A stretch of 64,000 nucleotides of DNA from an uncultured Planctomycetia bacterium (GTDB taxonomy: Bacteria > Omnitrophota > Gorgyraeia > CAYWPX01): positions 19,509 through 83,508 of the forward strand of contig CAYWPX010000009.1 in NCBI GenBank assembly GCA_964460615.1, written 5' to 3'. Shown one piece after another: positions 2,355-60,026 of this stretch (its first letter is position 1; the number at the start of each line of letters is the position of its first letter). The position numbers and the translations under genes were made by a program. The notes under the pieces are model-generated. The model was not told the DNA's origin. It saw nothing but the letters and a program-made list of their open reading frames with translations, and did not search any database.

Positions 2355-2536
2355 CATCTTTATTAAATTCTGGCGCGCCCGGCAGCTTGTCCGCCAATGA
2401 ATTGTGGCGGAGAGTCGACATTCTTTACTAATTTCCTTTGAAACATCTAATTCTGGCGCGCCCGGCAGCTTGTCCGCCAATGAATTGTGGCGGAGAGTCG
2501 ACATTCTTTACTAATTTCCTTTGAAACATCTAATTC
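2355..2536. repeat. Tandem 83-bp repeat (2.2 copies); each unit begins with the 3'-terminal 18 nt of tRNA-Arg plus a hairpin (ccgccaatgaattgtggcgg). The last unit runs into the real tRNA.
   Basis: ttctggcgcgcccggcagcttgtccgccaatgaattgtggcggagagtcgacattctttactaatttcctttgaaacatctaa is present at 2368-2450 and 2451-2533, then ttctggcgcgcccggcag continues as tRNA-Arg. Confidence 0.85.
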
Positions 2537-2663: not shown

Positions 2664-2795
2664 AGTAGGTGGCTTAGAGCCACCTACTCCCTGCCTGCCG
2701 GCCCTCTGAAATCTAAAAGATTTCGAGGCCTTTAGTCCCGGAAATGCGTAGCATTTCACGGGGCAGGCAGGTATCCAGCTGAGCTACGGGCGCAA
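2664..2795 (-). pseudogene. tRNA-Arg-derived fragment (5' acceptor/D-arm and anticodon stem-loop, no T-arm) interrupted by an 82-bp palindrome-ended element
   Basis: rc reads GCGCCCGTAGCTCAGCTGGATA + [CCTGCCTGCC...GGCAGGCAGG] + GAGTAGGTGGCTCTAAGCCACCTACT. The first 22 nt are identical to the tRNA-Arg 5' end and no 3' half follows. Confidence 0.6.
2690..2771. mobile_element. MITE-like element: 12-bp terminal inverted repeats CCTGCCTGCCGG / (G)GGGCAGGCAGG enclosing ~58 bp with two internal hairpins; inserted in the pseudo-tRNA
   Basis: Termini match the dispersed 20-bp palindrome found at 47217, 47237, 52923 and 60007. Interior hairpins tgaaatct/agatttca and gaaatgc/gcatttc. Confidence 0.5.
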
Positions 2796-2844
2796 AAACA
2801 TTAAAATTCTATGGTGTTACTTAAAAAGATCCCTGATCCCAAGG

Positions 2845-8964: not shown

Positions 8965-9219
8965 TTAGGCTAATTGTGGACTAAAAAACTTTTCTTTAAT
9001 TCTCCGTCGCCCTGTAGTTGATTTGTAAAATTTTTCCTTCTGTCTAGCTTCCTTAAGCGTTTCGAACTCTTCTGTATGTATTATGTTATACGGTCGATAT
9101 GGGCGTGACGCTTTGACTCTCCCGGCATTATGCAACGCTAATCGCTTATTCACATCATCGGCAACGCCGGTATACGTTCTCGTTTTCCTTTCATTGAGCA
9201 AGATATAGACATAATGCAT
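8965..9219 (-). CDS. GIY-YIG nuclease superfamily protein (UPF0213/YhbQ-like)
   Basis: 84 aa from MHYVYILLNERKTRTYTGVADDVNKRLALHNAG...EEFETLKEA, matching the YhbQ/YazA family. The longer ORF-track version (to 9345) overlaps tRNA-Ser and is rejected. Confidence 0.75.
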   Translation of the reverse strand: MHYVYILLNERKTRTYTGVADDVNKRLALHNAGRVKASRPYRPYNIIHTEEFETLKEARQKEKFYKSTTGRRRIKEKFFSPQLA

Positions 9220-23190: not shown

Positions 23191-23411
23191 GTTAATCACC
23201 CCCGCTCTAAGATCTTTCTATATGGAATTGCCAAAAAAATGTTAAAAATTAATATTAATTATACAGCATATTAAAAAAAAGAAAATTGGCAGATTCTATT
23301 ACTATTTGACTTTTTTCTACCTATAGATAATTTAGAATGTTTTGCATATGCTCTTAATAGGGGTAAGCACATATTCTTAAGATATTGTAAAATTCCATAA
23401 TTTTAGAATCC

Positions 23412-23965
23412 AAAATTAAGAAATTTTAGCAACAATCGCATGGACAAAAAATAAACCTCTTATTTTTTTAAGAGGTTTTAATTGAATTTTGCCCCTCGTT
23501 TTGCCTAAATTGCTTCTTCTCGACGCAATTTACGGCAACTCGGGATTGGTGAGCCGCCCGTGACTCTCCCGACGCAATCCTTTGGATAGGTCGGGATTCC
23601 GACTTACCTGTTTTATGGGTAACGTCGGAAGAACACGGCGTATCTACCAATGAATAAAATTGAAAGACTGAGAGGGTATATGTCCATGCGCTTAAAATAG
23701 TACTAAAATTCCTTAATTTTCAAGAACACAAAATTAAGAAATTTTAGTATTAATCGCATGGACAAAAAATAAACCTCTTATTTTTTTAAGAGGTTTTAAT
23801 TGAATTTTGCCCCTCGTTTTGCCTAAATTGCTTCTTCTCGACGCAATTTACGGCAACTCGGGATTGGTGAGCCGCCCGTGACTCTCCCGACGCAATCCTT
23901 TGGATAGGTCGGGATTCCGACTTACCTGTTTTATGGGTAACGTCGGAAGAACACGGTGTATTTGG
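23412..23965. repeat. Two ~232-bp direct repeats (23412-23643 and 23731-23960, period ~319 bp). Each contains a bidirectional terminator hairpin and the 3'-terminal 20 nt of tRNA-Lys(TTT).
   Basis: Near-identical blocks. tggtgagccgcccgtgactc at 23548-23566 and 23865-23884 equals the tRNA 3' end at 24143-24162. ORFs 23468-23650 and 23786-24001 lie inside the repeats and are likely spurious. Confidence 0.85.
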
Positions 23966-24142: not shown

Positions 24143-24218
24143 TGGTGAGCCGCCCGTGACTCGAACACGGCACAACCACATTAAAAGTGTGGTGCTCTAC
24201 CTGATGAGCTAGCGGCCC
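24143..24218 (-). tRNA. tRNA-Lys (anticodon TTT), encoded CCA
   Basis: rc reads GGGCCGCTAGCTCATCAGGTAGAGCACCACACTTTTAATGTGGTTGTGCCGTGTTCGAGTCACGGGCGGCTCACCA. Anticodon loop CTTTTAA. Confidence 0.85.
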
Positions 24219-24566
24219 ACGTTAAACTTAAATCTAAATTTCAATACTAGGCAATCTGACTGATGTCGCTTTGTTGATGTCCCAAAAAACTTAAGTTTTT
24301 TGGGATGAATTAGCTCTTGATCCTTAAAAACTCGTTTTTCTGCCTGCTGCCTTAGGGCAGTCAGGCAGTAATCATGATCTAATTCTACGGCCCACGTTAA
24401 ACTTAAATCTAAATTTCAATACTAGGCAATCTGACTGATGTCGCTTTGTTGATGTCCCAAAAAACTTAAGTTTTTTGGGATGAATTAGCTCTTGATCCTT
24501 AAAAACTCGTTTTTCTGCCTGCTGCCTTAGGGCAGTCAGGCAGTAATCATGATCTAATTCTACGGC
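24216..24566. repeat. Tandem 175-bp repeat x2 (+ partial third) between frr and tRNA-Lys(TTT). Each unit carries a perfect 24-bp palindrome cccaaaaaacttaagttttttggg and an imperfect GC hairpin ctgcctgctgcc-ttag-ggcagtcaggcag.
   Basis: Units 24216-24390 and 24391-24565 are near-identical; the unit boundary includes the first nt of the tRNA 5' end (cggccc). Confidence 0.85.
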
Positions 24567-35484: not shown

Positions 35485-35570
35485 TGTACTCTCCTTGTAA
35501 TTTTTTATCTTTATTCTATGTACTGTGTACTAAGAACTGTGTACCTGCCTCGCCGGCAGGCGGGCTGCTT

Positions 35571-37997
35571 TTAGAATCCCCTGCTTACGCTAAAATAAAA
35601 TCTCGGCTTCTTCTTTTCTCCTTCAAGATTACTTAAAGGATACCCTAGATCTAGGCTGACCGGGCCGATCGGCGTCTTTACCCTTACGCCAACACCGGTC
35701 CCATATTTTAGGCTCGAGGAAGCAAAGTTGCTGGCCTTTTCCCAGACATTACCGCCGTCAAAAAATACAGCGCCTTTTAAAAGCTTCTCATATATAGGAA
35801 AAGTTACCTCAGCATTTGCTACAAACATAGAATTACCACCAACAAAATCTCCGGTAAGAGGGTCTTTCGGGCCGACGCTTCTTTCCTTATAACCTCTGAT
35901 AGTATACTGGCCTCCGGCAAAAAATCTTTCATAAATAGGAACGTCGTTTGAACCGCTGAATTTATTGGCAAATCCACCTTGCCCTTTAAGCTGGAAAACA
36001 ATCTTTTCAAAAAGGCTGTAGTAGTATTCTCCCGAAGCAAAATATTTATAAAAATTCTTGTCGCCTCCAAGAAAACCTCCGGTCTCCTGAAATGAAGTGG
36101 CCAAATAATAACCTCTTGTGGGATTATATATATTGTCCCTTTTATCATACGACAATGAAGGGATAAGGCTGCTGATAGTATTCTTTCCTTCTTCATTCAA
36201 AAGTGCCTGCGATGCGCCGGAATCTATATCGTTGATATTCACCTCTTCGAGCTTGTACGTCAAATTGCCTCTAAAAGCATCCGTAAACTCCTTACCGAGC
36301 CTTACGTCTCCGCCGGTTGTGGTCTCATTATAGGCATAACCAACTGCCTTATCATGCATTCTTCTATAGGCATCAAAACCAAATTCGTAAGGGAACCCCA
36401 ACACCCAGGGGTCCGTCCAGCTAAGTTCATAATTCTGCCTGACAGTACTTACCTCGGCTCTAATATTCAAGCGCTGTCCGGCTCCGGTAAAGGTAGGGAA
36501 ATTCAATAGATCAAAATTTTTCTGGGCCACTTCAGCAAAACCAAGGAACGCATCCACTGAACTATAGCCACCACCAAAGCTAAATTCACCCGTCTTAGTC
36601 TCTTTTACATTTACTATAAGATTTTTTTTGTTAGGCTCACTGCCTGATTCGGTGTCAAAAGATACCTCGTCAAAATAACCCAGATTATAAAGTCTTTCTT
36701 TAGATCTTCTTATTTTCGAACCGTCAAATTTTTCCCCGGGGAAAAACCTTAATTCACGCCTGACTACGACATCTTTTGTCCTGATGTTACCCTTTATCTT
36801 TATCTTATCGATGTACGTAAGGTCATTCTCAACAACTGAATAAAAGATCTCGATCTTGGCATTGTCTTTATCTACCGCTATGTCAGAGTTCAGCTCACAA
36901 GACATGTAACCCCTGTCATAATAATATTGCTGGAGATAATCAATATCCATTCTCATACCTTCGTTTGAGAAAGGCTTACCCTCTTTCATCTTAATGTGTT
37001 TCCTGATATCTGACTCAGGAAAAATTTTATTTCCGGTAATATTTACTTTTTTGACAGTATATTTTTTGCCTTCCGTCACATTAATAGTTACGAAAAGCAG
37101 GTCCTTTTTTTCATTATATTTTAAGTCAGGGTCTATCATGACATCCAGATACCCGGCGCTTTCATAGAAGGCCTTCAGCTTATCAATATCCGCCTCAAAA
37201 ACCTCTTCTTTGAAGAATCCTGATATCCAAAGCCAATGCGGCCTTGTTGTCATGACCTTTAGAAGTTCTTTGGATCTGATCGCCTTATTCCCTTTGAAAG
37301 TTATTGATTTTACGATAACCTTGGACTTTTCATCAATAATAATATGAATAGCCGCTCTGTTAGTCTCTTCATTTAGTTTAACTTCATAATTTATGTCCGT
37401 AAGCGGAAAACCCTTCTTTTCATATAATTTCTTAAGCTCTATTATGTCTGACTTCAACTTCCCAAGGTCCAACATCTCTTCAGGCGCGGACTTCATCTCT
37501 TTTTTTAAGACCTTCTCCTTTATCGCCCTATTGCCTTCGAACACTATGGAATCAATAACCGGTTTTTCCGTTACCTTAAAAATTACCTTGATACCGTCAT
37601 CAAAATCAGAGACATCTATTGCAATATCCGTAAAATACCCCAAATTATACAACCTTTTAAGGTCATCATTAAGAATGTCCTGTGAAAAAACATCCCCGGG
37701 CCTGATCTTTATTTTTGCTATTATAGTGCTGGAAGAGATAGACTTGTTGCCGTCAACATCGACAACCTTGATGATTTTAACTTGAGGTTTTTTTGTTTCA
37801 ATTAAGTTAGAACTCTCGTTACCATTGGAAGTTGCCTCTGATGAGTTCACAGGCTTAGGGTTATCGGCCTTAGCGCCCAGGTTAATGTCATTAGCACTAT
37901 TATTATTTAATTGCGCTGAATCTTCAGAGAAGGAGTTTGTGCTTAAGCTAAAAAATATGAATATACCTGTTACAATTGCAAAAAACTTTTTTCCCAT
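35571..37997 (-). CDS. bamA: outer membrane protein assembly factor BamA
   Basis: 808 aa. Signal peptide, five POTRA repeats, C-terminal Omp85 beta-barrel ending in aromatic F. Confidence 0.9.
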   Translation of the reverse strand: MGKKFFAIVTGIFIFFSLSTNSFSEDSAQLNNNSANDINLGAKADNPKPVNSSEATSNGNESSNLIETKKPQVKIIKVVDVDGNKSISSSTIIAKIKIRPGDVFSQDILNDDLKRLYNLGYFTDIAIDVSDFDDGIKVIFKVTEKPVIDSIVFEGNRAIKEKVLKKEMKSAPEEMLDLGKLKSDIIELKKLYEKKGFPLTDINYEVKLNEETNRAAIHIIIDEKSKVIVKSITFKGNKAIRSKELLKVMTTRPHWLWISGFFKEEVFEADIDKLKAFYESAGYLDVMIDPDLKYNEKKDLLFVTINVTEGKKYTVKKVNITGNKIFPESDIRKHIKMKEGKPFSNEGMRMDIDYLQQYYYDRGYMSCELNSDIAVDKDNAKIEIFYSVVENDLTYIDKIKIKGNIRTKDVVVRRELRFFPGEKFDGSKIRRSKERLYNLGYFDEVSFDTESGSEPNKKNLIVNVKETKTGEFSFGGGYSSVDAFLGFAEVAQKNFDLLNFPTFTGAGQRLNIRAEVSTVRQNYELSWTDPWVLGFPYEFGFDAYRRMHDKAVGYAYNETTTGGDVRLGKEFTDAFRGNLTYKLEEVNINDIDSGASQALLNEEGKNTISSLIPSLSYDKRDNIYNPTRGYYLATSFQETGGFLGGDKNFYKYFASGEYYYSLFEKIVFQLKGQGGFANKFSGSNDVPIYERFFAGGQYTIRGYKERSVGPKDPLTGDFVGGNSMFVANAEVTFPIYEKLLKGAVFFDGGNVWEKASNFASSSLKYGTGVGVRVKTPIGPVSLDLGYPLSNLEGEKKKPRFYFSVSRGF

Positions 37998-43474: not shown

Positions 43475-44737
43475 TTATCTCTTTTTTTTAATGGGTTTAG
43501 CGGGTATACCGACTACTATTCCGCCGTTTGGAACATTTTTATTCTTTGTCACAACTGACCCGGCGCCGGTTACGGCACTTTTTCCTATTTTGACCGGCGC
43601 GATCAAAACTGTACCGCTTCCGATGAAAGAATTATCGCCTATTTCTGTTTTGGATTTATTCTTTCCGTCATAATTGGCAACTATAGTCCCGCATCCGATG
43701 TTAACGGAATTCCCGACTTCAGCATCGCCAAGATAGGTATGATGCTTAACTTTTGAATTCTCGCCGACCTTAGTCCTTACAACTTCAACAAAATTTCCTA
43801 TTTCGGAATTATCCGCAATGGATGAGCCCGGCCTGATCCTTGCAAAAGGCCCTATCTTGCAATTTTTCCCTATTATTACTCCCGATTCTATGATGGTATG
43901 AGAATAAATAATGGAATCTATGCCGATCTTAACATTACTGGCGATATAGGTATTAGCCGGATCTTTTATTGTAACACCGCTAAGCATGAAGGAATCGAGG
44001 ACCCTGCGCCTTGTAACGCTCTCTGCCTTTGCTAACTCAATACGCGAATTTATACCTATGATCTCATCAGTATCTTTTGTTGTATATGTCTCGATCTTTT
44101 TACCGGATCTAGCAATTATACCGATAGTATCGGTAAGAAAATATTCGTTCTTTTTATTATTATTTTTAACCATTGAAAGGGCCTTAAATAGGTCCTTTGA
44201 CTTATAAAAATAAGCCCCTACATTTATCTCTTCAATGGCCTTTTCAAAAATAGTTGCGTCTAACTCTTCGGTGATCTTTATAACTCTGCCCTCATCGTCC
44301 CTGACGATCCTCCCGTAGCTGGTAGGATCTTTTAAAAAAGTAGTGAGAATTGTGCAAGAACTTTTGGTTGACCTGTGGGCATTGAGTAATTCTCTGATAG
44401 TCTCTTCTTTTACGAGAGGCGCATCACCGCAAAGAACCAGAACATCCCCATCAAAATCCGACAGCTCCGACTTTGCCTGATTCACGGCATCGCCTGAACC
44501 AAGAAGCGATCTCTGGATTACAAATTTAACATTATCCTTAATGGCCTTTTTTACAACTTCGTGCTTATACCCCAGCACTACAATGGTCTTTGCCGCGCCT
44601 ACAGCCTTAGGAAGATCAAGAACATAATCAATCATCGGACGCTCCAATATCTCATGAAGTATTTTAGGCACTTCCGATCTCATTCTTGTCCCACGTCCGG
44701 CAGCAAGTATTACACAGGCTAAAGTCTTATCGTTCAT
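43475..44737 (-). CDS. glmU: bifunctional GlcNAc-1-P uridyltransferase / GlcN-1-P acetyltransferase GlmU-like
   Basis: 420 aa. N-terminal LAAGRGTRM nucleotidyltransferase + C-terminal hexapeptide LbH; glmU-prs order is conserved. Confidence 0.8.
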   Translation of the reverse strand: MNDKTLACVILAAGRGTRMRSEVPKILHEILERPMIDYVLDLPKAVGAAKTIVVLGYKHEVVKKAIKDNVKFVIQRSLLGSGDAVNQAKSELSDFDGDVLVLCGDAPLVKEETIRELLNAHRSTKSSCTILTTFLKDPTSYGRIVRDDEGRVIKITEELDATIFEKAIEEINVGAYFYKSKDLFKALSMVKNNNKKNEYFLTDTIGIIARSGKKIETYTTKDTDEIIGINSRIELAKAESVTRRRVLDSFMLSGVTIKDPANTYIASNVKIGIDSIIYSHTIIESGVIIGKNCKIGPFARIRPGSSIADNSEIGNFVEVVRTKVGENSKVKHHTYLGDAEVGNSVNIGCGTIVANYDGKNKSKTEIGDNSFIGSGTVLIAPVKIGKSAVTGAGSVVTKNKNVPNGGIVVGIPAKPIKKKR

Positions 44738-44739
44738 AA

Positions 44740-46017
44740 TTAGGCGATCTTTTTCTTTTTATCTTTTTTTACAATCAATTCGATCTTTTTTGTATTATTA
44801 ATGATCTTTTCGTCCACAATGCACTCCGTGATACCGCTCTCAGAAGGAAGTTCATACATGGCCTCCAGCATGATTTCCTCCACGATCGACCTAAGGCCTC
44901 TGGCACCGGTTTCTTTATTAATAGCTTCGGTGGCAATCGCCTCTAGCGCATCATCAGTAAATGAAAGTTTTATATTTTCCATTTCAAAGAATTTCTTATA
45001 CTGAGAAACCAGTGAATTTTTTGGTTCAGTAAGAATCTTTATAAGATCATTTTTAGAAAGCGCGCTGAGGGTAGCTATGACAGGGAATCTTCCGATAAAT
45101 TCCGGGATCATGCCGAACTTTACAACATCCCTCGGGTCAACCTTCAAAAGCGCCTCGGCCTGATCAATTTTTTTATTAAGCGCCTTGGCGCCAAACCCTA
45201 TCTCGCCTTTTCCAAGCCTTTTCTCTACGATCTTGTCCAATCCGTTAAAGGTACCGCCGCATATAAAAAGAATATTAGATGTATCAACCTGAATGTACTC
45301 CGCCTGCGGATGCTTTCTCCCTCCGGTAGGAGGAACATTGGCAGTTGTGCCTTCTATGATCTTTAAAAGAGCCTGCTGAACTCCCTCTCCGGATACGTCT
45401 CTTGTGATTGAGACATTCTCCTGGGTCTTGCCTATCTTATCGATCTCATCTATATAAACAATGCCGATCTCGGCTTTCTTGACATCGTTATCCGCAGCCT
45501 GTAAAAGCCTGAGTATTACATTTTCCACATCCTCCCCGACATATCCAGCCTGGGTAAGACTAGTGGCGTCGCTAATGGCAAACGGCACATTCAATATCTT
45601 GGCTAAAGTTCTGGCTAAAAGTGTTTTCCCTGAGCCTGTAGGGCCGATCAAAAGTATATTGGATTTCTCAAGCTCAACATCATCACCCGATTTAGAAGAC
45701 TTTGAAACGATCCTTTTATAATGATTGTAAACTCCTACGGAAAGCTGTCTTTTCGCCCTGTCCTGCCCGACAATATATTTATCGAGTATATTTTTAATTT
45801 CAGAAGGTTTTGGAACATTAGTAAAAAGCGGCTCGGAATCCTTTTTAAGAGGTTTTTCATCTTTAATGAGGATCTTATTGCATAGCTTTACGCAAGCTTC
45901 GCATATAAGTCCTGATTGGCCCTTAAAAAATTTACCGGCTTCATTTTTTGTTCTTCCGCAGAACGAGCATTTTTCCTGTATCATTTGAATATTTACCTCA
46001 TTTCCCTTAATGTCCAA
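44740..46017 (-). CDS. clpX: ATP-dependent Clp protease ATP-binding subunit ClpX
   Basis: 425 aa. N-terminal C4 zinc finger (CSFCGR...CEAC), Walker [12 protein letters not shown]-like loop region. True start may be the internal Met ([11 protein letters not shown]). Confidence 0.95.
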
Positions 46018-46150
46018 AAATCTTTTCTAGCTTTCTTAGTAGTAAATTTAAAGGTAAATTCGTTCATTGATTGAAGCCATTCAAGTTTTTTCTTTGGAGA
46101 TATTTTCATAAATTTCAATAAGCGTTCTTTTTCACTTGCATCTTTCAAAA

Positions 46151-46648
46151 TCATCTCATTTCCCTTATCTTTTTTATCTTCTTCAAATTTTCAACGTCGA
46201 CTTTGTCAATGAGACGCCCTGTATTTTTCTTCATCAATATAAGATCATCTAACGATATAACCGGTAAAGCAATGTCACCGCTTTTAATAACCAAACTATT
46301 CTTTTTAGCCTTTTCGTAAGAAAGAGGGGATTTTATTATAATATCAACTTCTTTTAATTCATCTTCTTTATAAAAATTAAAAGCTTTTAAATGTTTATTT
46401 TTAATCCAATCTTCCCGTGTTTTTTTATCCGCCAAACCCATAGGTTCAACGGGTTGTTTAACAATATAACCGTTCTTCTTCAGGATAGTTACAACTTTTG
46501 CAAGATTATCATCACTCATTTCTACAAGTATATCCATATCAAGCGTGCTTCTTAAATATCCCAAAAGATTCAGAGCTATGCCCCCCACTAAAACATACTT
46601 TACTTTCTTTTTCTGAAATGCACGTAATATATTTTCGTAGATTATCAC
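46151..46648 (-). CDS. minimal nucleotidyltransferase-fold protein (MNT-like; G-x12-D-x-D)
   Basis: 165 aa. YVLVGGIALNLLGYLRSTLDMDILV matches the Pol-beta-superfamily NTase core of antitoxin-type MNT proteins. Confidence 0.5.
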   Translation of the reverse strand: MIIYENILRAFQKKKVKYVLVGGIALNLLGYLRSTLDMDILVEMSDDNLAKVVTILKKNGYIVKQPVEPMGLADKKTREDWIKNKHLKAFNFYKEDELKEVDIIIKSPLSYEKAKKNSLVIKSGDIALPVISLDDLILMKKNTGRLIDKVDVENLKKIKKIREMR

Positions 46649-46664
46649 AGCTCTTATTCCTCTA

Positions 46665-46976
46665 CTAATTCCTATTTATTTTATCTAATTCAACTCTAAT
46701 TCTAGATAAAACTAAACTTGTTACGGCGCGTATTTTCCTCAGCTCTTCTATTCTAAAAGATATAAGCGAGTTATCGTTCCAATCCTCCTTAGACAAAAGC
46801 AATCCTTGATGTGCAATTTTATTTCTATCTGGTTTGATGTTTTTTAATTCTCTTATTAAACGATCATTATTACTTAATTTCTCAAATTTAGTGATTAATT
46901 GTCCTAAAGAATCCTCTTCTATCCATTTTTGAGTACATTTAAAAGGAACTGCTCCAGAAAGCTTGTTTCTTATCAT
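46665..46976 (-). CDS. HEPN-like small protein (Rx4H motif)
   Basis: 103 aa. PDRNKIAHQG resembles the HEPN/HepT RNxxxH catalytic motif; immediately upstream of the MNT-like gene. Confidence 0.35.
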   Translation of the reverse strand: MIRNKLSGAVPFKCTQKWIEEDSLGQLITKFEKLSNNDRLIRELKNIKPDRNKIAHQGLLLSKEDWNDNSLISFRIEELRKIRAVTSLVLSRIRVELDKINRN

Positions 46977-47216
46977 CTTTATAGCAACTGTTATGTATGT
47001 TTTTAATGCAAATTCTATGAGTTAAAAATTATATAAAGTAGGAATAATTTCATCAATATATTCTTTATAATTGTTTTTTTCATTTTTCCTTATAACAATA
47101 TAACAATTAAAATTTATAAGAACTGTACCTATTTTTGCTTATTCTATTGTTCTATTGCTCAATTTTCAATTGCTCTACCAAAATTTGCCAAAAACAAATT
47201 CTGGTTGCCCGGTAAG

Positions 47217-47256
47217 CCTGCCTGCCGGCAGGCAGGCCTGCCTGCCGGCAGGCAGG
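47217..47256. repeat. two tandem copies of the perfect 20-bp palindrome CCTGCCTGCCGGCAGGCAGG, inserted inside a duplicated copy of the tRNA-Gln 3' end
   Basis: tggttgcccggtaag|PAL|PAL|gattcgg versus the genuine tRNA 3' end tggttgcccggtaaggattcg at 47392-47412. Confidence 0.9.
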
Positions 47257-47391
47257 GATTCGGCGCCCTTCGTACGGCTTCGCTTACGCTACGCCAGTTA
47301 CTACGGGTCGGCCACCCGCCTCATCTACATATTCTCCTTTTCGTCGAATATATGAGGCTCCCTTCGAATCCTTACTTGTAGTTAATAATTT

Positions 47392-47465
47392 TGGTTGCCC
47401 GGTAAGGATTCGAACCTTAACGCTCAGACCCAAATTCTGATGTGCTACCATTACACTACCGGGCA
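47392..47465 (-). tRNA. tRNA-Gln (anticodon TTG), encoded CCA
   Basis: rc reads TGCCCGGTAGTGTAATGGTAGCACATCAGAATTTGGGTCTGAGCGTTAAGGTTCGAATCCTTACCGGGCAACCA. Anticodon stem TCAGA/TCTGA, loop ATTTGGG. Confidence 0.75.
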
Positions 47466-47585
47466 ATAAAGTTTTTTGAATGAGCTTATCTTATTAAGTC
47501 ATGCGATCATGATGATCCATAAAAGATCTGGTTCACCGCACTACCGGGCAATGTCAAGGTTCCTTCACACCAATAATACTATTTC

Positions 47586-47632
47586 AAAAAAAGACATTTT
47601 AGGCAGTACCATGTATCTGATACTGCCTAAAA
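47586..47632 (-). terminator. rho-independent terminator downstream of spoVG
   Basis: 12-bp perfect stem ttttaggcagta/tactgcctaaaa, T-tract 4 nt after the hairpin on the minus strand. Confidence 0.55.
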
Positions 47633-47670
47633 TTTAATTGCTTTTATATTAAAGCTTATAACTTAAAATG

Positions 47671-48135
47671 TTAAAGCTCTATATCGCCTTCTGTATCCAT
47701 CCCATGGTCAACGCTGATAGGCTTATTGCCGATACTAGATTCGCTTTTAGGCTCCTTTTTCTCCTGTTCATATGCATCCAAAACCTTCTTCTGGATGTAT
47801 TCCCTGCATTCAAGAGTAATAGGATGAGCAATATCTTTATGTTCGGACTGTCTGGCCGATTCATCCTGAGCGGTAATATGAGTCTTTTGCTCAATCACCG
47901 GCAGACTTGCGCCGCACTGGTTGCAGAACTTGCTGCGAACAGTATTTTTATAATTACATTTTGGGCATGGCTCTTTAACTTTCCTTGATGGCATAGCTAC
48001 AAAAAGCCCTTTATTGCCTTCGATAACTTTAATATTCCTTACGACGAAAGCATTATCGATAGTTATCGTCGCATAAGCTTTCAATTTTTTATCTGCACCG
48101 CTTTTTAAAAAAACCCTAACTTCCGTAATTTCCAT
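47671..48135 (-). CDS. spoVG: SpoVG-family protein with inserted C4 zinc-ribbon
   Basis: 154 aa. MEITEVRVF...ATITIDNAFVVRNIKVIEGNKGLFVAMPSRK ... DIAHPIT matches the SpoVG core. ~45 aa with CPKC...CNQC inserted between AMPSRK and DIAHPI. Confidence 0.75.
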   Translation of the reverse strand: MEITEVRVFLKSGADKKLKAYATITIDNAFVVRNIKVIEGNKGLFVAMPSRKVKEPCPKCNYKNTVRSKFCNQCGASLPVIEQKTHITAQDESARQSEHKDIAHPITLECREYIQKKVLDAYEQEKKEPKSESSIGNKPISVDHGMDTEGDIEL

Positions 48136-48156
48136 TTGAAAAATACTCCTTTCATT

Positions 48157-49044
48157 CTAAGATGTAACTTTAGTCTTTGCTAATATAAATCTCCAATCGT
48201 CCTGCCTCTTATAGCAAGCCTCGTATCTCTTAATAAGGCTCCTCGCCACCTCCTTGTTTTCAACAATACCAAAAATTGTGGGGCCACTTCCTGTTATCCT
48301 GGCCCCTAAGGTATTTAAAGAAAGCTCTCTAAGAGCCTCCTTAATTTTTGCATCTTCTTTAATAACAACCGATTCCAGATCGTTAAAAAGAGATTTTGCC
48401 AATAGCTTTAGGTCAAATTGTTCTAAATTACGACGTGTTATTTTAACATTGCTACTCTGGTTTGTCAAGCCTAAATTAAGCTTATTATATATATCTTTTG
48501 TAGCCTTTTTTGATGGCCTAAAAAGAAGAATTAGCCAGAATTCCTTGGTACAATTTATCTCTTCTAGCACTTCTCCTATGCCTTTAGCCAATGCATAGGG
48601 TTTGTCATATACAAAAAAAGGAACATCTGCGCCCAATTTGACTGAAATGGAGATTAATTCATCTTTATTGATACCCATTTCAAACAACTTATTGATCCCA
48701 ATTAGCGTTGCAGCCGCATCTGAGCTTCCCCCTCCTAATCCGCTAGCTAAAGGAATGTTCTTTTTTACGAATATATCAACGCCTTTATCTCTGATCCCCT
48801 TTAAATCAAAAAGCATTTTTGCGGCTTTATAGCACAAATTATCTGATATCTCTAAATTATTAAGAGCTTGATCGTTTGAATTAACGGTTATTAATCTATC
48901 ATTTCTAATTTTTAAGGAAATTTCATCGGAAAGGTCAAGTTTGGCAAAAATTGTCTCAATTTCATGATATGAATCGGGCCTTTTGCCTATTACTTTCAGG
49001 CAAAGATTGATTTTGGCGGGAGCGAGTAAGGTAATGCTTTCCAT
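48157..49044 (-). CDS. ispE: 4-diphosphocytidyl-2-C-methyl-D-erythritol kinase
   Basis: 295 aa. PAKINL and PLASGLGGGSSDAAA GHMP-kinase motifs. Confidence 0.9.
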   Translation of the reverse strand: MESITLLAPAKINLCLKVIGKRPDSYHEIETIFAKLDLSDEISLKIRNDRLITVNSNDQALNNLEISDNLCYKAAKMLFDLKGIRDKGVDIFVKKNIPLASGLGGGSSDAAATLIGINKLFEMGINKDELISISVKLGADVPFFVYDKPYALAKGIGEVLEEINCTKEFWLILLFRPSKKATKDIYNKLNLGLTNQSSNVKITRRNLEQFDLKLLAKSLFNDLESVVIKEDAKIKEALRELSLNTLGARITGSGPTIFGIVENKEVARSLIKRYEACYKRQDDWRFILAKTKVTS

Positions 49045-49146: not shown

Positions 49147-50103
49147 CTAAGTCTTTTTTTCCTTGCCCTTAGTGAGGGCAACCAGTTCTTTGGCTTTATT
49201 GACAATATTTTCTTCAGTGAGATTAAATACCTTGAAAAGTTCTTCAAGTTCTCCGGATTCCCCGCACCTATCTTTGATCCCGATAAATGTCATTGGCACC
49301 GGATAGTTCTGTGATACAACTTCGCTCACGGCACTTCCTAGCCCCCCGTAAACCGTATGCTCTTCACATGTCAAAATGCATCCGGTTTTCTTGGCAGATT
49401 CTAAAATCAATTTTTCATCGAGAGGACGTAGCGTATGAATATTAATGACCCTTGCTTCAATGCCGGACTTAAGAAGCTCTTCTCTGGCCTTAAGCGCATA
49501 GTAACACATATTCCCGCAACTCGTTATCGTAATATCCTTGCCATCAGCAAGTATCGTACCTTTGCCGATCTCAAAATCGTCTTCTTCTTTAGTGATAACA
49601 GGGACATTTGACCTTCCCAGCCTTATATAGACAGGGCCCGGAAATTCCGCCGCTTTAATAGTTGCTTTCTTTGCTTCGATAAAATCGCACGGAACGATCA
49701 TCGTCATATGCGGAAGCGCTCTCATAAGCGCTATCTCTTCTATCGCCTGATGCGTATATCCATCAGGGCCTGTAGCAATGCCGCCATGCGTCCCGATAAT
49801 CTTTACATTTAACTTCATATAAGAAATAGATACTCTTATCTGATCCCAAGCGCGGCCGCTGGCAAAAACGCCAAAAGTGGCAGCAAAGGGAATTTTCCCG
49901 CAAAGAGCCATTCCGGCTGCCGTAGAGAACATATCTTGTTCGGCGACGCCCATCCCGAAAAACCTGTCAGGAAATTCTTTCTGAAACCATGATGCTCTGG
50001 TCGAATCTGTCAAGTCGGCGCACAGCACAACTACGTCTTTATTTTTCTTTGCCGCTTCTATAACTCCTTTTCCAAATCCATCTCTAGTAGGGATCATTTC
50101 CAT
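49147..50103 (-). CDS. tkt: transketolase, C-terminal (pyrimidine-binding) subunit
   Basis: 318 aa; split transketolase. Confidence 0.9.
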   Translation of the reverse strand: MEMIPTRDGFGKGVIEAAKKNKDVVVLCADLTDSTRASWFQKEFPDRFFGMGVAEQDMFSTAAGMALCGKIPFAATFGVFASGRAWDQIRVSISYMKLNVKIIGTHGGIATGPDGYTHQAIEEIALMRALPHMTMIVPCDFIEAKKATIKAAEFPGPVYIRLGRSNVPVITKEEDDFEIGKGTILADGKDITITSCGNMCYYALKAREELLKSGIEARVINIHTLRPLDEKLILESAKKTGCILTCEEHTVYGGLGSAVSEVVSQNYPVPMTFIGIKDRCGESGELEELFKVFNLTEENIVNKAKELVALTKGKEKKT

Positions 50104-50215
50104 GTTATATCCTTTAAATTATGTCTCAAGTCACAGGTCTGCCTGCAAAGCAGGCGATGTCACAGGTTAAATAATCATATAATAACCTGAGACATGCGAC
50201 TTGCAACATGAAACA

Positions 50216-51052
50216 TTACAATTTTTTCTCAGCTTCTTCCAATTCCTTTAAAGCCTTTTCCAATTCATCTTTCTTTGGCGCAATACCGTGCCATTCGGCT
50301 TTGTTTTCAACAAATGATACGCCTTTACCTTTTACAGTATGAGCGATTATTACTGTGGGCTTTCCTTTGATCTCGTCAGCCTTATCCAAAGCAATCATAA
50401 GATCTTTGACGTTATGTCCATCGACTTCGATAGTATGCCATCCGAAAGCCTTCCATTTTTCAGTCATAGAAGTCATATCCTTCACATCGCAGCAAAACCC
50501 GTCTATCTGAAGCCTGTTAAAATCTATGATCCCGCATACATTATCAAGCTTGTAATGACTGGATGTCATAGCAGCTTCCCAGATCTGGCCTTCATTGGTT
50601 TCACCGTCGCCCATAAGGCAATAAACTTTATATTTCAATTTATCAAGCCTGGCTGCAAAAGCCATGCCATTAGCCAGCGATAGACCCTGACCAAGTGATC
50701 CGGTAGATGCTTCAATACCCGGCAGGCCGATATATGGGTGGCCCTGAAGCCTTGAGCCTATCTTTCGAAGCGTTGAAAGCTCCTCTTTTGGAAAAAACCT
50801 TAAGCTAGAAAGCACCGCATAAAGCGCCGGACAGGCATGACCTTTAGATAAAACAAATCTATCCCTGTCGGTCATTTTTGGATTTTTCGGGTCCACGTTC
50901 ATCTTGTAATAATAAAGTGCTATCAATATCTCCACTATAGAAAGCGACCCGCCGGTATGCCCGCTTTTTGCTAAAAATAACATATTAAGGATATCTTTTC
51001 TTATTGAAAAAGCTAAACGCTCAAGATCTTTTATATCAACATTTTTTTTCAT
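50216..51052 (-). CDS. tkt: transketolase, N-terminal (TPP-binding) subunit
   Basis: 278 aa. GHTGGSLS and GDGETNEG TPP-binding motifs. Confidence 0.9.
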   Translation of the reverse strand: MKKNVDIKDLERLAFSIRKDILNMLFLAKSGHTGGSLSIVEILIALYYYKMNVDPKNPKMTDRDRFVLSKGHACPALYAVLSSLRFFPKEELSTLRKIGSRLQGHPYIGLPGIEASTGSLGQGLSLANGMAFAARLDKLKYKVYCLMGDGETNEGQIWEAAMTSSHYKLDNVCGIIDFNRLQIDGFCCDVKDMTSMTEKWKAFGWHTIEVDGHNVKDLMIALDKADEIKGKPTVIIAHTVKGKGVSFVENKAEWHGIAPKKDELEKALKELEEAEKKL

Positions 51053-52739: not shown

Positions 52740-52922
52740 TACTAACCACCTAAAAGCTGTAGATTTTCTTAAAAAATCACTATCTTTCTCTCTTTTTATG
52801 TCTATCTCTTCTCAATCTTTTTTTTCTTTTATGCTTAGCCATTTTTTTGCGTTTTCTTTTTCTTCCGCAAGGCATGCTGTACCCCTTTCTATTTAGCTCT
52901 TGGCTCATAGTTACCTATGAGC

Positions 52923-52942
52923 CCTGCCTGCCGGCAGGCAGG
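52923..52942. repeat. 20-bp perfect palindrome CCTGCCTGCCGGCAGGCAGG flanked by TATGAGC direct repeats; adjacent hairpin ggctcatag-ttac-ctatgagcc
   Basis: Identical to the copies at 47217, 47237 and 60007. Confidence 0.9.
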
Positions 52943-52954
52943 TATGAGCTCGTA

Positions 52955-60006: not shown

Positions 60007-60026
60007 CCTGCCTGCCGGCAGGCAGG
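60007..60026. repeat. 20-bp perfect palindrome CCTGCCTGCCGGCAGGCAGG flanked by TATGAGC direct repeats (glyA-rpiB intergenic)
   Basis: gctatgagc|PAL|tatgagctat. Confidence 0.9.

Follow-up and report, generated by a model that had tools for sequence, protein, structure and literature searches.

The closest described counterparts of the locus reported here are the attL/attR arrangements left at tRNA genes by tyrosine integrases of prophages, ICEs and genomic islands, in which the direct repeat corresponds to the 3' part of the tRNA, the tRNA itself stays intact and a displaced copy lies beyond the insert (PMC9897764, which cites Reiter 1989 and Williams 2002 on tRNA gene integration sites). The integrative elements known from tRNA genes span 9 kb to more than 100 kb and bring an integrase gene (9-23 kb and 121 kb for those given in PMC9897764), and integration into tRNA genes is known at two symmetric sublocations, the T-loop and the anticodon loop (Williams 2002, cited in PMC9897764). 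We analysed a 64-kb stretch of Omnitrophota DNA (64,000 nucleotides, the window below) whose tRNA-Gln(UUG) gene shows these same three features, and resembles the integrase sites further in that the repeat boundary lies in the T-loop while 5' fragments stop in the anticodon loop. Unlike at those sites, 60-200 bp of non-coding DNA are enclosed here with no recombinase nearby, the fragments are split by hairpins, and the kb-scale cargo found at the tRNA-Gln site of relatives comes without repeats. In addition, 5' and 3' fragments are equally common here, an unusual feature for bacterial integrases.

Comparators for the short palindrome that splits the tRNA copies (P20) are the REP/REPIN and MITE-like repeats of bacteria and the GC clusters and double-hairpin elements of AT-rich fungal mitochondrial DNA. 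Like REP/REPIN and MITE-like repeats, P20 is short, perfectly palindromic and rich in GC against an AT-rich genomic background, with identical intergenic copies that often sit past stop codons; some copies have short flanking direct repeats, and longer versions with the same termini exist. Unlike them, P20 consists at 20 nt of termini only, is smaller than known MITEs and has flanking repeats of variable length (0-14 nt); REPs are not known to insert repeatedly inside tRNA genes or tRNA fragments. Homing endonuclease genes of the free-standing GIY-YIG type are a further comparator, T4 SegB in a phage tRNA gene cluster being an example, and endonuclease-gene insertions in fungal mitochondrial genes are known to duplicate part of the invaded gene. 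Here, similarly, small GIY-YIG ORFs adjoin tRNA genes and a partial copy of the invaded gene lies across the ORF. In contrast, the window's tRNA-Gln has only a 12-nt shared element end, and the nuclease activity and homing of these ORFs are putative.

Copies of the tRNA-Gln ends

The elements of the locus are the following.

47392-47465, minus strand: intact tRNA-Gln(UUG) gene with encoded CCA (ARAGORN; Rfam tRNA, 59.9 bits)
47257-47262, minus strand: proximal part of the downstream direct copy, tRNA-Gln positions 54-59 (CGAATC, T-loop; read directly)
47217-47256, no strand assigned: two tandem copies (47217-47236 and 47237-47256) of P20, CCTGCCTGCCGGCAGGCAGG, a 20-nt perfect palindrome; junction present in Logan unitig L082
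47202-47216, minus strand: distal part of the downstream direct copy, tRNA-Gln positions 60-74 (CTTACCGGGCAACCA; exact 15-mer, also in L082)
47263-47391, minus strand: non-coding insert between tRNA-Gln and its 3' copy, GC-rich over 47263-47330, folding into a hairpin at 47318-47358 and including an AT-rich linker
47363-47375, minus strand: 13-nt inverted T-arm copy (GTAAGGATTCGAA on the tRNA strand), 17 nt after tRNA-Gln and complementary to tRNA positions 52-64
47539-47552, minus strand: upstream direct copy of the tRNA-Gln 5' end, AT plus positions 1-12 (homologous 5' copies in L011, L025 and L073)
47527-47538, minus strand: CGGTGAACCAGA, immediately after the upstream 5' copy (sequence comparison)
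47596-47633, minus strand: intrinsic terminator of spoVG, which bounds the tRNA-Gln unit upstream (hairpin also in the closest relative, L118)

The arrangement that an earlier note had described from the letters, a tRNA-Gln with duplicated 3' and 5' ends whose 3' duplicate is split by two palindromes, is real and non-random. TGGTTGCCCGGTAAG occurs exactly twice in the 64-kb window (47202-47216 and 47392-47406), an exact 15-mer being expected about 1e-4 times per 64 kb, and chance is no explanation for the duplication of the ends. The downstream copy reads positions 54-59, a 40-nt insert and positions 60-74, which amounts to 21 tRNA bases from the T-loop to CCA. The flank of the distal part (47197-47201) is similar as well, giving a 20-nt repeat at 95%, and the copy together with its flank (AATTC/AATTT) comes to 26 bases with one mismatch. 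Its separation from the gene by 175 bases (190 start to start) and its splitting by tandem elements were described correctly. The boundary at position 54 recurs in L011 and L015, where the 21-nt block (positions 54-74) is uninterrupted and lies 125-139 nt downstream of tRNA-Gln.

At the other end of the gene, CACTACCGGGCAAT (14 bases) is found at 47454-47467 and again 85 bases upstream at 47539-47552, one base away from the 47538-47551 given before; Logan unitig L001 carries this upstream copy too. The inverted T-arm copy, which the earlier note overlooked, has equivalents 11-43 nt downstream of tRNA-Gln in L011, L015, L017, L028 and L120. Logan unitig L082 (SRR12487046) reads ggttgcccggtaag followed by P20 and cctgcctgcc; because this independent unitig shows both the tRNA-copy/P20 junction and the start of the tandem, neither is the artefact of a single assembly.

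The 301-nt region at tRNA-Gln folds far better than its shuffles (z-score -6.7), and the hairpin of the insert has a z-score of -5. Across 46900-47700, Rfam returned tRNA only, at the gathering score and at E<=10; the best non-tRNA match, 27 bits to a miRNA model, falls on the palindrome and simply reflects it. No ORF with family similarity was found in the insert, and its 129 nt of GC-rich filler have no local template. A core (AGGGATTCGAAGC...GCGCCGA...GGAAAAG) is conserved downstream of tRNA-Gln in L011, L015 and L028, in the last without a direct repeat, and the window's insert has only short motifs in common with it. RNAalifold on the four sequences sharing GGATTCGAAG...GAAAAG gave no supported consensus structure (-3.6 kcal/mol). 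The exact tRNA-Gln att block TTCGAATCCTTACCGGGCAACCA, as an attP-like sequence, had zero matches in IMG/VR viral contigs, and a metagenome scan for the block returned three loci, every one of them chromosomal, with no free form. As a decayed GIY-YIG gene the insert is not detectable: a profile of six GIY-YIG proteins scored 3.1 bits, antisense, which 11 of 500 shuffles equalled (p ~0.02), and we do not count this match as evidence.

Gene order around tRNA-Gln

Downstream of tRNA-Gln lie three genes on the same strand.

46665-46976, minus strand: 103-aa ORF with an RNKIAH (Rx4H) HEPN-type motif, the first gene of a low-GC islet (motif; GC ~0.30)
46151-46648, minus strand: 165-aa nucleotidyltransferase-fold ORF, MNT-like (DUF6036, 25.8 bits, cut-off 23.6)
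44740-46017, minus strand: clpX, a housekeeping gene conserved in the clade and outside any island (NCBIfam ClpX equivalog, 629 bits vs cut-off 359)

The earlier note took the tRNA-end repeats for att sites of an island that had brought the HEPN-like gene, the MNT-like gene and clpX into spoVG-glmU synteny at the point marked by tRNA-Gln. The gene order of relatives argues otherwise. tRNA-Gln directly follows spoVG in 70 of 71 Omnitrophota loci and is thus part of the conserved order rather than the mark of its interruption. clpX, of normal GC in the window, lies between tRNA-Gln and glmU in 15 other species (64-75% identity), and so is a true housekeeping gene, not cargo; clpX between spoVG and glmU in relatives is the first half of what the earlier note had named as refuting its reading. 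The repeats themselves enclose 175 bp of non-coding DNA, which excludes all three genes, and no further copy that could delimit a larger island was found within 4 mismatches in 44000-48500 or near clpX.

In favour of an island speak the att-like character of the tRNA-end repeats, the low GC of the HEPN-motif/nucleotidyltransferase pair (0.24-0.33 in 45900-47100 vs ~0.40 in the flanks) and the variability of the site downstream of tRNA-Gln, which was rightly suspected and which holds different cargo in relatives: a restriction-modification pair and genes for Fic, HicB-like and 23S-IVS proteins. This kb-scale cargo, however, has no tRNA direct repeats. The island bounded by tRNA repeats is largely refuted and very improbable; what stands of it is the 1.2-kb low-GC pair, which looks inserted.

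The 103-aa ORF matches no Pfam or NCBIfam (HEPN) model. Its partner scores 29.5 bits against NTP_transf_5, slightly under the cut-off, and has homologues at the same site in L018 and L020. The pair resembles HEPN-MNT toxin-antitoxin systems in that an NTase-fold ORF stands beside a small Rx4H-motif ORF, at low GC and at a variable site. It differs from them in the lack of a HEPN model match, in the HEPN-like gene coming first, in the DUF6036 type of the NTase and in lying outside the repeats.

In most relatives 13-90 nt separate tRNA-Gln from the next gene, without insert or copies. L120 and L122, of another lineage, have the same tRNA-Gln 3' end with glmU 17-37 nt away, a candidate empty site. 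In the closest relative, L118 (85% SpoVG), the contig stops inside a tRNA-Gln of different sequence type and offers no empty-site control.

End copies, hairpins and GIY-YIG genes at other tRNAs

Of 84 tRNAs, 11 (4 of 8 from the window, 7 of 76 from relatives) have end copies of at least 13 bases, vs 0-0.1 in reversed or shuffled controls, and GC-rich hairpins frequently interrupt these copies. At +113 to +196, related 3' copies are present in L027, L031, L062 and at the window's tRNA-Lys(ctt). The boundaries of 3' copies cluster in the T-loop (window's tRNA-Gln and tRNA-Lys(ctt), L011, L015) and those of 5' copies in the anticodon loop, the 5' tRNA-Gln copies of L025 and L073 stopping at positions 35/36. 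In every lineage the 3' copy matches that lineage's own tRNA end exactly, which calls for gene conversion or events of recent date. In L011 the distal copy is followed by a TIR element, and one of the same kind stands directly past the tRNA CCA in L031 and L121; this fits a distal copy that was once the 3' end of the gene.

The 3' copies of tRNA-Gln and tRNA-Arg are split by two unrelated hairpins at the same structural position, past the first base of the 3' T-stem strand, which random secondary insertion does not predict. Perfect tandem units are present at tRNA-Arg (83 nt, twice) and at tRNA-Lys(ttt) (175 nt, twice, and 318 nt, twice), and also in L015 and L025. Among the GC-rich fillers of different tRNAs we found no common family, P20 termini being all that they have in common. 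Retro-copying of tRNA 3' fragments was considered and set aside: three 3' copies run 5 nt past CCA into the gene flank (tRNA-Arg, tRNA-Lys(ctt)), indicating copying at the DNA level. In the literature searched, hairpin-split tRNA fragments in bacteria are not described.

Further P20 copies and a GIY-YIG gene lie elsewhere in the window.

52923-52942, no strand assigned: exact P20 copy with TATGAGC on either flank, 12 nt past the hisG stop codon
60007-60026, no strand assigned: exact P20 copy, again between TATGAGC flanks, at a distance of 11 nt from the rpiB stop codon
2690-2771, no strand assigned: 82-nt element with P20 termini (CCTGCCTGCC...GGCAGGCAGG), inserted between positions 22 and 23 of a tRNA-Arg 5' copy that lies upstream
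8992-9219: GIY-YIG ORF at tRNA-Ser(gga) (Pfam, 4.9e-15)

In total the window has four exact P20 copies and one 82-nt variant, vs none in window shuffles. The pair at 47217-47256 forms one 40-nt palindrome overall; as single-stranded DNA a single copy folds with -8 kcal/mol and the pair, as one 18-bp hairpin, with -26.5 kcal/mol, and the 82-nt element reaches -27.5 kcal/mol (z-score -7.3). The 40-nt unit around the copy at 60007-60026 is 98% identical to 52911-52950, and the 7-nt flanking duplication is the same sequence at both sites. Flanking direct repeats of 7, 8 and 14 nt are present in L101, L085 and L091 and absent at the tRNA copies. Exact P20 copies are found in three other Omnitrophota species and in 35 stretches of IMG/VR, diverged variants in L050, L063 and L041, and some copies have internal cargo. 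For the copies in high-GC viral contigs convergence is conceivable, given the low complexity of the sequence, (CCTG)n joined to (CAGG)n. P20-type hairpins sit inside other tRNA fragments or tRNAs in L114, L125, L107 and L084. The positions that recur are the D-loop/D-stem junction (window's tRNA-Arg copy, L114), the variable loop (L107, L084) and the T stem (tRNA-Gln locus). In L107, ARAGORN accepted a tRNA-Met with P20 as an extra arm. No convincing insertion-site consensus emerged from about 45 copies, and no RAYT or transposase gene for P20 was among the ORFs scanned in the 64-kb window.

The upstream 5' copy of tRNA-Gln provides a link to the GIY-YIG genes. The element end CCGTGAACCAGA follows the 5' tRNA-Gln fragments (positions 1-35/36) of L025 and L073, and the end common to these two and the window is C(C/G)GTGAACCAGA, 12 nt; the L073 element with this CCGTGAACCAGA end carries a GIY-YIG ORF. 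Small GIY-YIG ORFs lie at most 115 nt from a tRNA gene or tRNA fragment in all six cases, and a partial copy of the invaded tRNA gene is present on the far side of the ORF in L073, L114, L125 and L123. The proteins, of about 76 aa, consist of the catalytic domain alone (Pfam GIY-YIG), with no recognisable DNA-binding domain. No such ORF adjoins the window's tRNA-Gln; the segment between the repeats, its borders and the surroundings of the other tRNA clusters examined contain no integrase, transposase or GIY-YIG gene. GIY-YIG/tRNA adjacency in bacteria is undescribed in the literature searched.

Origin and meaning of the duplicated ends

We give an even chance to the reading that the locus consists of layered scars of miniature tRNA-targeting insertions, without evident present function; tRNA-Gln would then be both a fixed landmark and a recombination hotspot in Omnitrophota. 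The demonstrated starting state is tRNA-Gln(UUG) as the ancestral neighbour of spoVG, followed in this clade by clpX-glmU. The low-GC HEPN-motif/nucleotidyltransferase pair would have settled downstream of tRNA-Gln. Judging from the anatomy, a GC-rich non-coding segment of about 175 bp would next have entered the T-loop of the tRNA-Gln gene, supplying its own T-loop-to-CCA end, so that tRNA-Gln stayed intact and the original 21-nt end was displaced downstream along with the islet behind it. The geometry would be that of attL/attR at a T-loop integration site, in miniature; since the recombinase gene is absent, either an enzyme acting in trans or an illegitimate event has to be assumed. The displaced 21-nt end was probably split later by the two P20 copies, P20 being a dispersed, REP/MITE-like hairpin in this genome; this order is suggested by the P20 copies elsewhere and by the unbroken 21-nt copies in relatives. 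Finally, the upstream 12-14-nt 5' copy may be the stump of a second kind of insertion, which in relatives would take the form of a cassette with a tRNA fragment from the 5' side, hairpins, the gene for a small GIY-YIG nuclease and, lastly, the intact tRNA. Several observations are counted against the layered scars: the heterogeneous fillers between the repeats argue against one element family, the perfect tandem units (L015, tRNA-Arg, tRNA-Lys(ttt)) could arise by simple duplication, and the segment has no recombinase or GIY-YIG gene, no detectable GIY-YIG remnant and no attP-like copy in viral contigs. The exact match of each 3' copy to its own lineage's tRNA end, and the hairpins at one structural position in the 3' copies of both tRNA-Gln and tRNA-Arg, weigh on this side too.

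A bolder reading, possible and rather doubtful in our view, sees an undescribed class of miniature tRNA-targeting selfish cassettes at tRNA genes of Omnitrophota and of some phage-like contigs. Its complete form would join a target tRNA fragment, split by a P20-type GC hairpin, to the gene for the ~76-aa GIY-YIG nuclease and to an intact copy of the tRNA. Rather than a later passenger, the hairpin would belong to the working element; it might stabilise the mRNA of the nuclease, or insulate the duplicated target or make it immune. The tRNA-Gln locus would be a gene-less derivative with scars on its 5' and 3' sides, and the fixed hairpin positions would reflect structure-specific targeting of tRNA genes.

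Two rival explanations concern the origin or role of the copies. Replication stalling at tRNA genes and GC-rich hairpins, with template switching and slippage at the quasi-palindromic T arm, would need no mobile element at all, the palindromes being by-products or passengers. We regard it as unlikely. It would yield the order direct (in the tRNA), inverted (T-arm), direct, which is seen in the window and in minimal form in L017 (7 nt from inverted to direct), together with the perfect tandem units and the short flanking duplications of varying length (7-14 nt) at several P20 copies, and the inverted copy follows each lineage's T-arm sequence, as quasi-palindrome correction would predict. On the other hand, the flank past the distal copy is unrelated to the sequence past tRNA-Gln, which excludes a simple tandem duplication, the untemplated filler and the identical P20 at unlinked sites and in other species are left unaccounted for, and block boundaries are clustered instead of random. 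Still less probable is a functional RNA, in which the inverted T-arm copy, the structured insert and the 3'-end mimic act as terminator, processing signal (for RNase P, RNase Z or the CCA-adding enzyme) or decoy, e.g. for the neighbouring HEPN-type RNase, and thereby control tRNA-Gln maturation or the expression of downstream genes. The strong folding, the conserved insert core, present in L028 even without a direct repeat, the constant identity of 3' copy and cognate tRNA end, and the placement of P20 copies 6-12 nt past stop codons, which resembles terminators or 3' stabilisers, agree with such a role. Against it weigh the missing Rfam family and consensus structure, the mere short motifs that link the window's insert to the core, the lack of any of these pieces in most relatives, and the same pattern at four different tRNAs with unrelated fillers; an acceptor/T minihelix is impossible because no 5' strand is adjacent.

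That a metagenome assembler made the palindromes, their tandem arrangement and the perfect tandem units is extremely improbable. The source is indeed a metagenome-assembled genome, perfect tandem repeats are error-prone in short-read assemblies and both Logan unitigs break exactly at P20 copies. Nevertheless, L082 independently holds the tRNA-copy/P20 and P20/P20 junctions, which speaks for the junctions and not for the copy number of the array, and P20 recurs in many unrelated assemblies, with diverged variants and internal cargo.

If the layered-scar reading is true, its value is mainly corrective: the repeats mark no island, clpX is native, and tRNA-fragment repeats about 100-200 bp apart are unsuitable for delimiting islands in these genomes, of which many complete Omnitrophota examples are now being reported, according to a recent preprint (10.64898/2026.06.07.730766). 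The wider pattern, with end copies at half of the window's tRNAs, hairpin splits at recurring positions and GIY-YIG adjacency, points to tRNA-directed mobility on the scale of tens to hundreds of bases, which integrase-centred island finders and tRNA annotators would miss or mis-call.

Gene order at tRNA-Gln

The source of the window is an uncultured Candidatus Omnitrophota; the best-named homologues of the SpoVG encoded beside tRNA-Gln come from Omnitrophota MAGs. For comparison we used 80 related loci from species-representative genomes (L-numbered handles denote related loci or contigs); all 80 are Omnitrophota or mislabelled 'Planctomycetia' MAGs of identical gene order. The window proteins and tRNAs were mapped onto these loci, and the order at tRNA-Gln was scored in the 71 with room for the tRNA. 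The results show that tRNA-Gln follows spoVG in 70/71 loci and therefore belongs to the conserved order, contrary to the earlier note, which took it to mark an island (HEPN-like, MNT-like, clpX) interrupting the spoVG-glmU synteny. glmU comes directly after tRNA-Gln in 46 loci (median gap 86 nt), and in 15 loci clpX lies between the two, with 64–75% identity to the window clpX. Because of this shared position, and because the window gene encodes a full ClpX equivalog of ordinary GC, clpX is native to this clade and is not island cargo, as had been proposed.

The genes of the split transketolase, tktN and tktC (window 49147–51052), stand side by side here and also in the 15 clpX-bearing loci, whereas in the other clade (loci such as L003, L004 and L008) they lie about 2.7 kb apart. 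SpoVG itself (window 47671–48135, minus strand) has a C4 zinc-ribbon insert (Pfam Zn_Ribbon_1/DZR) whose four cysteines are invariant in 21 Omnitrophota homologues (alignment A1).

The extra sequence between the tRNA and clpX amounts to 1375 nt, made up of a 175-bp repeat-bounded insert with palindromes and a 1.2-kb stretch (GC 0.24–0.33), the islet. The low-GC stretch contains:

ORF of 103 aa with an RNKIAH motif, no family match
DUF6036 nucleotidyltransferase
ORF of 53 aa

L018 and L020 have homologues of the nucleotidyltransferase in the equivalent position. Elsewhere the tRNA-Gln flank carries a methylase (N6/N4) with an MjaI-type endonuclease (L033), Fic proteins (L044, L056), a 23S-IVS (23S-rRNA-IVS) protein (L048) or a HicB-like pair (L079). 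With cargo that differs so from species to species, the spot downstream of tRNA-Gln is a hotspot at which small defence or addiction modules accumulate. In L049 the cargo is a LAGLIDADG-like ORF upstream of the tRNA. In L018 (10591–11115), downstream of tRNA-Gln, the C-terminal half of the MNT-like nucleotidyltransferase is joined in frame to a GIY-YIG domain, which looks like a recent insertion of the cassette into that gene.

Copies of tRNA ends

Read along the tRNA strand, the tRNA-Gln site is arranged as follows:

47633–47596, spoVG terminator (most upstream)
47552–47539, 14-nt upstream copy of the tRNA 5' end (AT plus positions 1–12)
73-nt spacer between the 5' copy and the intact tRNA, starting CGGTGAACCAGA
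47392–47465, minus strand, intact tRNA-Gln(UUG) gene
16-nt linker directly downstream of the intact tRNA
47375–47363, 13-nt inverted T-arm copy
47358–47318, hairpin, then GC-rich filler
CGAATC, tRNA positions 54–59, after the filler
the perfect palindrome CCTGCCTGCCGGCAGGCAGG (P20, 20 nt), twice in tandem, between the copies of positions 54–59 and 60–74
CTTACCGGGCAACCA, tRNA positions 60–74, distal to the palindromes, with a flank resembling the tRNA's own

The duplicates and palindromes are as the earlier note described them, except that it placed the 5' copy one base off and overlooked the inverted T-arm copy. The palindrome was absent from every shuffle of the window. We also searched 84 tRNA genes for self-copies of at least 13 nt within 700 nt: 11 of the 84 had such copies, against averages of 0 and 0.1 for reversed and shuffled tRNA sequences.

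A whole-window repeat search and direct reading of the sequences revealed related structures at other tRNAs. After tRNA-Arg(tcg) come two perfect 83-nt tandem units (100% identical; window 2366–2531), each ending in the tRNA 3' end. A 26-nt insert (22-nt hairpin plus CAAG) breaks this end just past the first base of the 3' T-stem strand, and the tRNA-Gln copy is split at the matching structural position. Upstream (window 2678–2798) lie an inverted copy of the anticodon-stem strand and a 34-nt copy of the 5' part, split between positions 22 and 23 by an 82-nt element (2690–2771) whose termini, CCTGCCTGCC...GGCAGGCAGG, are those of P20. A 21-nt 3' copy, starting from the T-loop, lies 196 nt downstream of tRNA-Lys(ctt). 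Downstream of tRNA-Lys(ttt), two repeats of about 240 nt (97% identical; window 23405–23961) contain the T arm and 3' end, the T-loop being split by a double hairpin, and a perfect 175-nt tandem pair across its 5' end (window 24213–24562) includes a P20-like hairpin (CTGCCTGCTGCC..GGCAGTCAGGCAG).

Among the relatives, unbroken copies of tRNA-Gln positions 54–74 lie 125–139 nt downstream in L011 and L015, with similar 3' copies in L027, L031 and L062 and 5' copies in L011, L025 and L073. The enclosed segments consistently measure 60–200 nt and are not a random sample of decayed islands. The tRNA itself has 64 distinct sequences among 73 loci, suggesting replacement of tRNA parts and not slow drift. 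In the relative nearest by SpoVG (85%), L118, the tRNA-Gln acceptor stem is quite unlike the window's (TGGGATGTCGTCC... at 2600–2640 vs TGCCCGGTAGTG... at window 47440–47465).

The P20 hairpin and GIY-YIG genes

Four P20 copies in the window are exact. Two of these, at 52923 and 60007, have a 40-nt unit in common, with TATGAGC on each side, and sit 6–12 nt past the stop codons of hisG and rpiB. Exact copies occur at non-orthologous intergenic sites in three other Omnitrophota species, and variants (substitutions or internal sequence) in several more, some directly after tRNA-Gln. Within IMG/VR, exact P20 was found in 35 stretches, many in high-GC phage-like contigs, where this low-complexity sequence may have arisen independently. 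In L114 (IMG/VR) it splits a tRNA-Lys 5' fragment at GGTA^GAGC, the D-loop/D-stem junction also split by the 82-nt element in the window tRNA-Arg copy. Two further IMG/VR contigs, L107 (2239–2330) and L084 (near 8616), carry P20 in the variable loop of tRNA-Met(CAT); the L107 gene passes ARAGORN as a tRNA of 92 nt with P20 standing as a long extra arm, and in L084 the T arm has P20 in place of its 5' half. P20 thus behaves as a dispersed hairpin of the REP/MITE-like kind, notably prone to landing in tRNA sequences. No target consensus could be derived from its sites; some lack flanking repeats, and others have them at up to 14 nt.

Just past the Omp85/BamA stop codon (window 35534–35574), a P20-like hairpin (CCTGCCTCGCCGGCAGGCGGG) with a T-run looks like a terminator version of the motif. 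A 70–100-nt element with terminal inverted repeats TTCT(A/G)CTT(C/T)GC...GCGAAG(T/C)AG stands directly after the CCA of tRNA-Gln or its copy:

L011, 10838–10916
L031, 10656–10752, with a 16-nt tRNA-end direct repeat on either side
L121, after tRNA-Gln

A search with six GIY-YIG proteins over the window and all comparison DNA found six distinct GIY-YIG genes, every one (6/6) no more than 115 nt away from a tRNA gene or tRNA fragment:

8992–9219, minus strand, window ORF encoding a 76-aa catalytic domain (Pfam GIY-YIG, 4.9e-15)
L018, L073, L114, L123 and L125, one gene each

The window ORF lies 82 nt downstream of tRNA-Ser(gga), with GC-rich hairpins and an 8-nt tRNA-end copy between. In L073, a tRNA-Gln 5' fragment (positions 1–36) leads into CCGTGAACCAGA and hairpins, and then into a small GIY-YIG ORF, which stops 32 nt before the intact tRNA-Gln. 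The 5' fragment of L025 runs into the same element end; in the window, CGGTGAACCAGA directly follows the 12-nt 5' stump. The L123 gene is bracketed by 128-nt repeats containing a tRNA 3' part, and the fragment that lies before the GIY-YIG ORF in L114 and L125 is interrupted by P20 or a hairpin resembling it. L114 (480–1140) continues from its split fragment and GIY-YIG ORF into a second tRNA-Lys start, whose anticodon loop is broken by a long insert with an ORF that, judged by eye, may be HNH-like; the insert may be an intron or another invader.

A proposed several-event history

We propose that an old islet was set downstream of tRNA-Gln, that a small non-coding segment would then have entered the T-loop, bringing a replacement 3' end, and that the displaced 3' end would later have been invaded by P20; the upstream side would be a decayed GIY-YIG-type cassette. 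This history fits in that the islet sits beyond the distal copy, the L011 distal copy is followed by the terminal-inverted-repeat element that elsewhere abuts the tRNA, and candidate empty sites exist in another lineage. Since no recombinase turned up and the fillers are not of one kind, we hold it to be about evenly balanced between right and wrong. Plain tandem units make up some of the repeats. The history accounts neither for the exact match between the copy in each lineage and that lineage's own tRNA end, nor for the splitting of the Gln and Arg copies at one structural position by unrelated hairpins. Replication template-switching around hairpins is an alternative that we consider unlikely, though it is the strongest of the rivals.

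A functional RNA is a still more doubtful reading; the local feature at tRNA-Gln is probably inert. The island model of the earlier note, with the repeats as its att sites, is very improbable: the repeats enclose 175 bp only, no third tRNA-end copy was found near clpX in the window, and the kb-scale cargo of relatives (L033, L044, L056, L048, L049, L079) showed neither tRNA direct repeats nor an integrase, so the repeats do not delimit the islet. We give slightly less credence still to an assembly artefact, as an independent Logan unitig from SRR12487046 contains the copy/palindrome and palindrome/palindrome junctions and supports the structure.

Integrating elements are well known to leave partial tRNA duplications (PMC9897764). 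The arrangement here differs from these in its miniature, gene-less size, in its hairpin-split fragments and frequent 5' fragments, and in its association with minimal GIY-YIG genes, a combination for which we found no description in the literature searched. The phylum-wide pattern of tRNA-end copies deserves a systematic survey.
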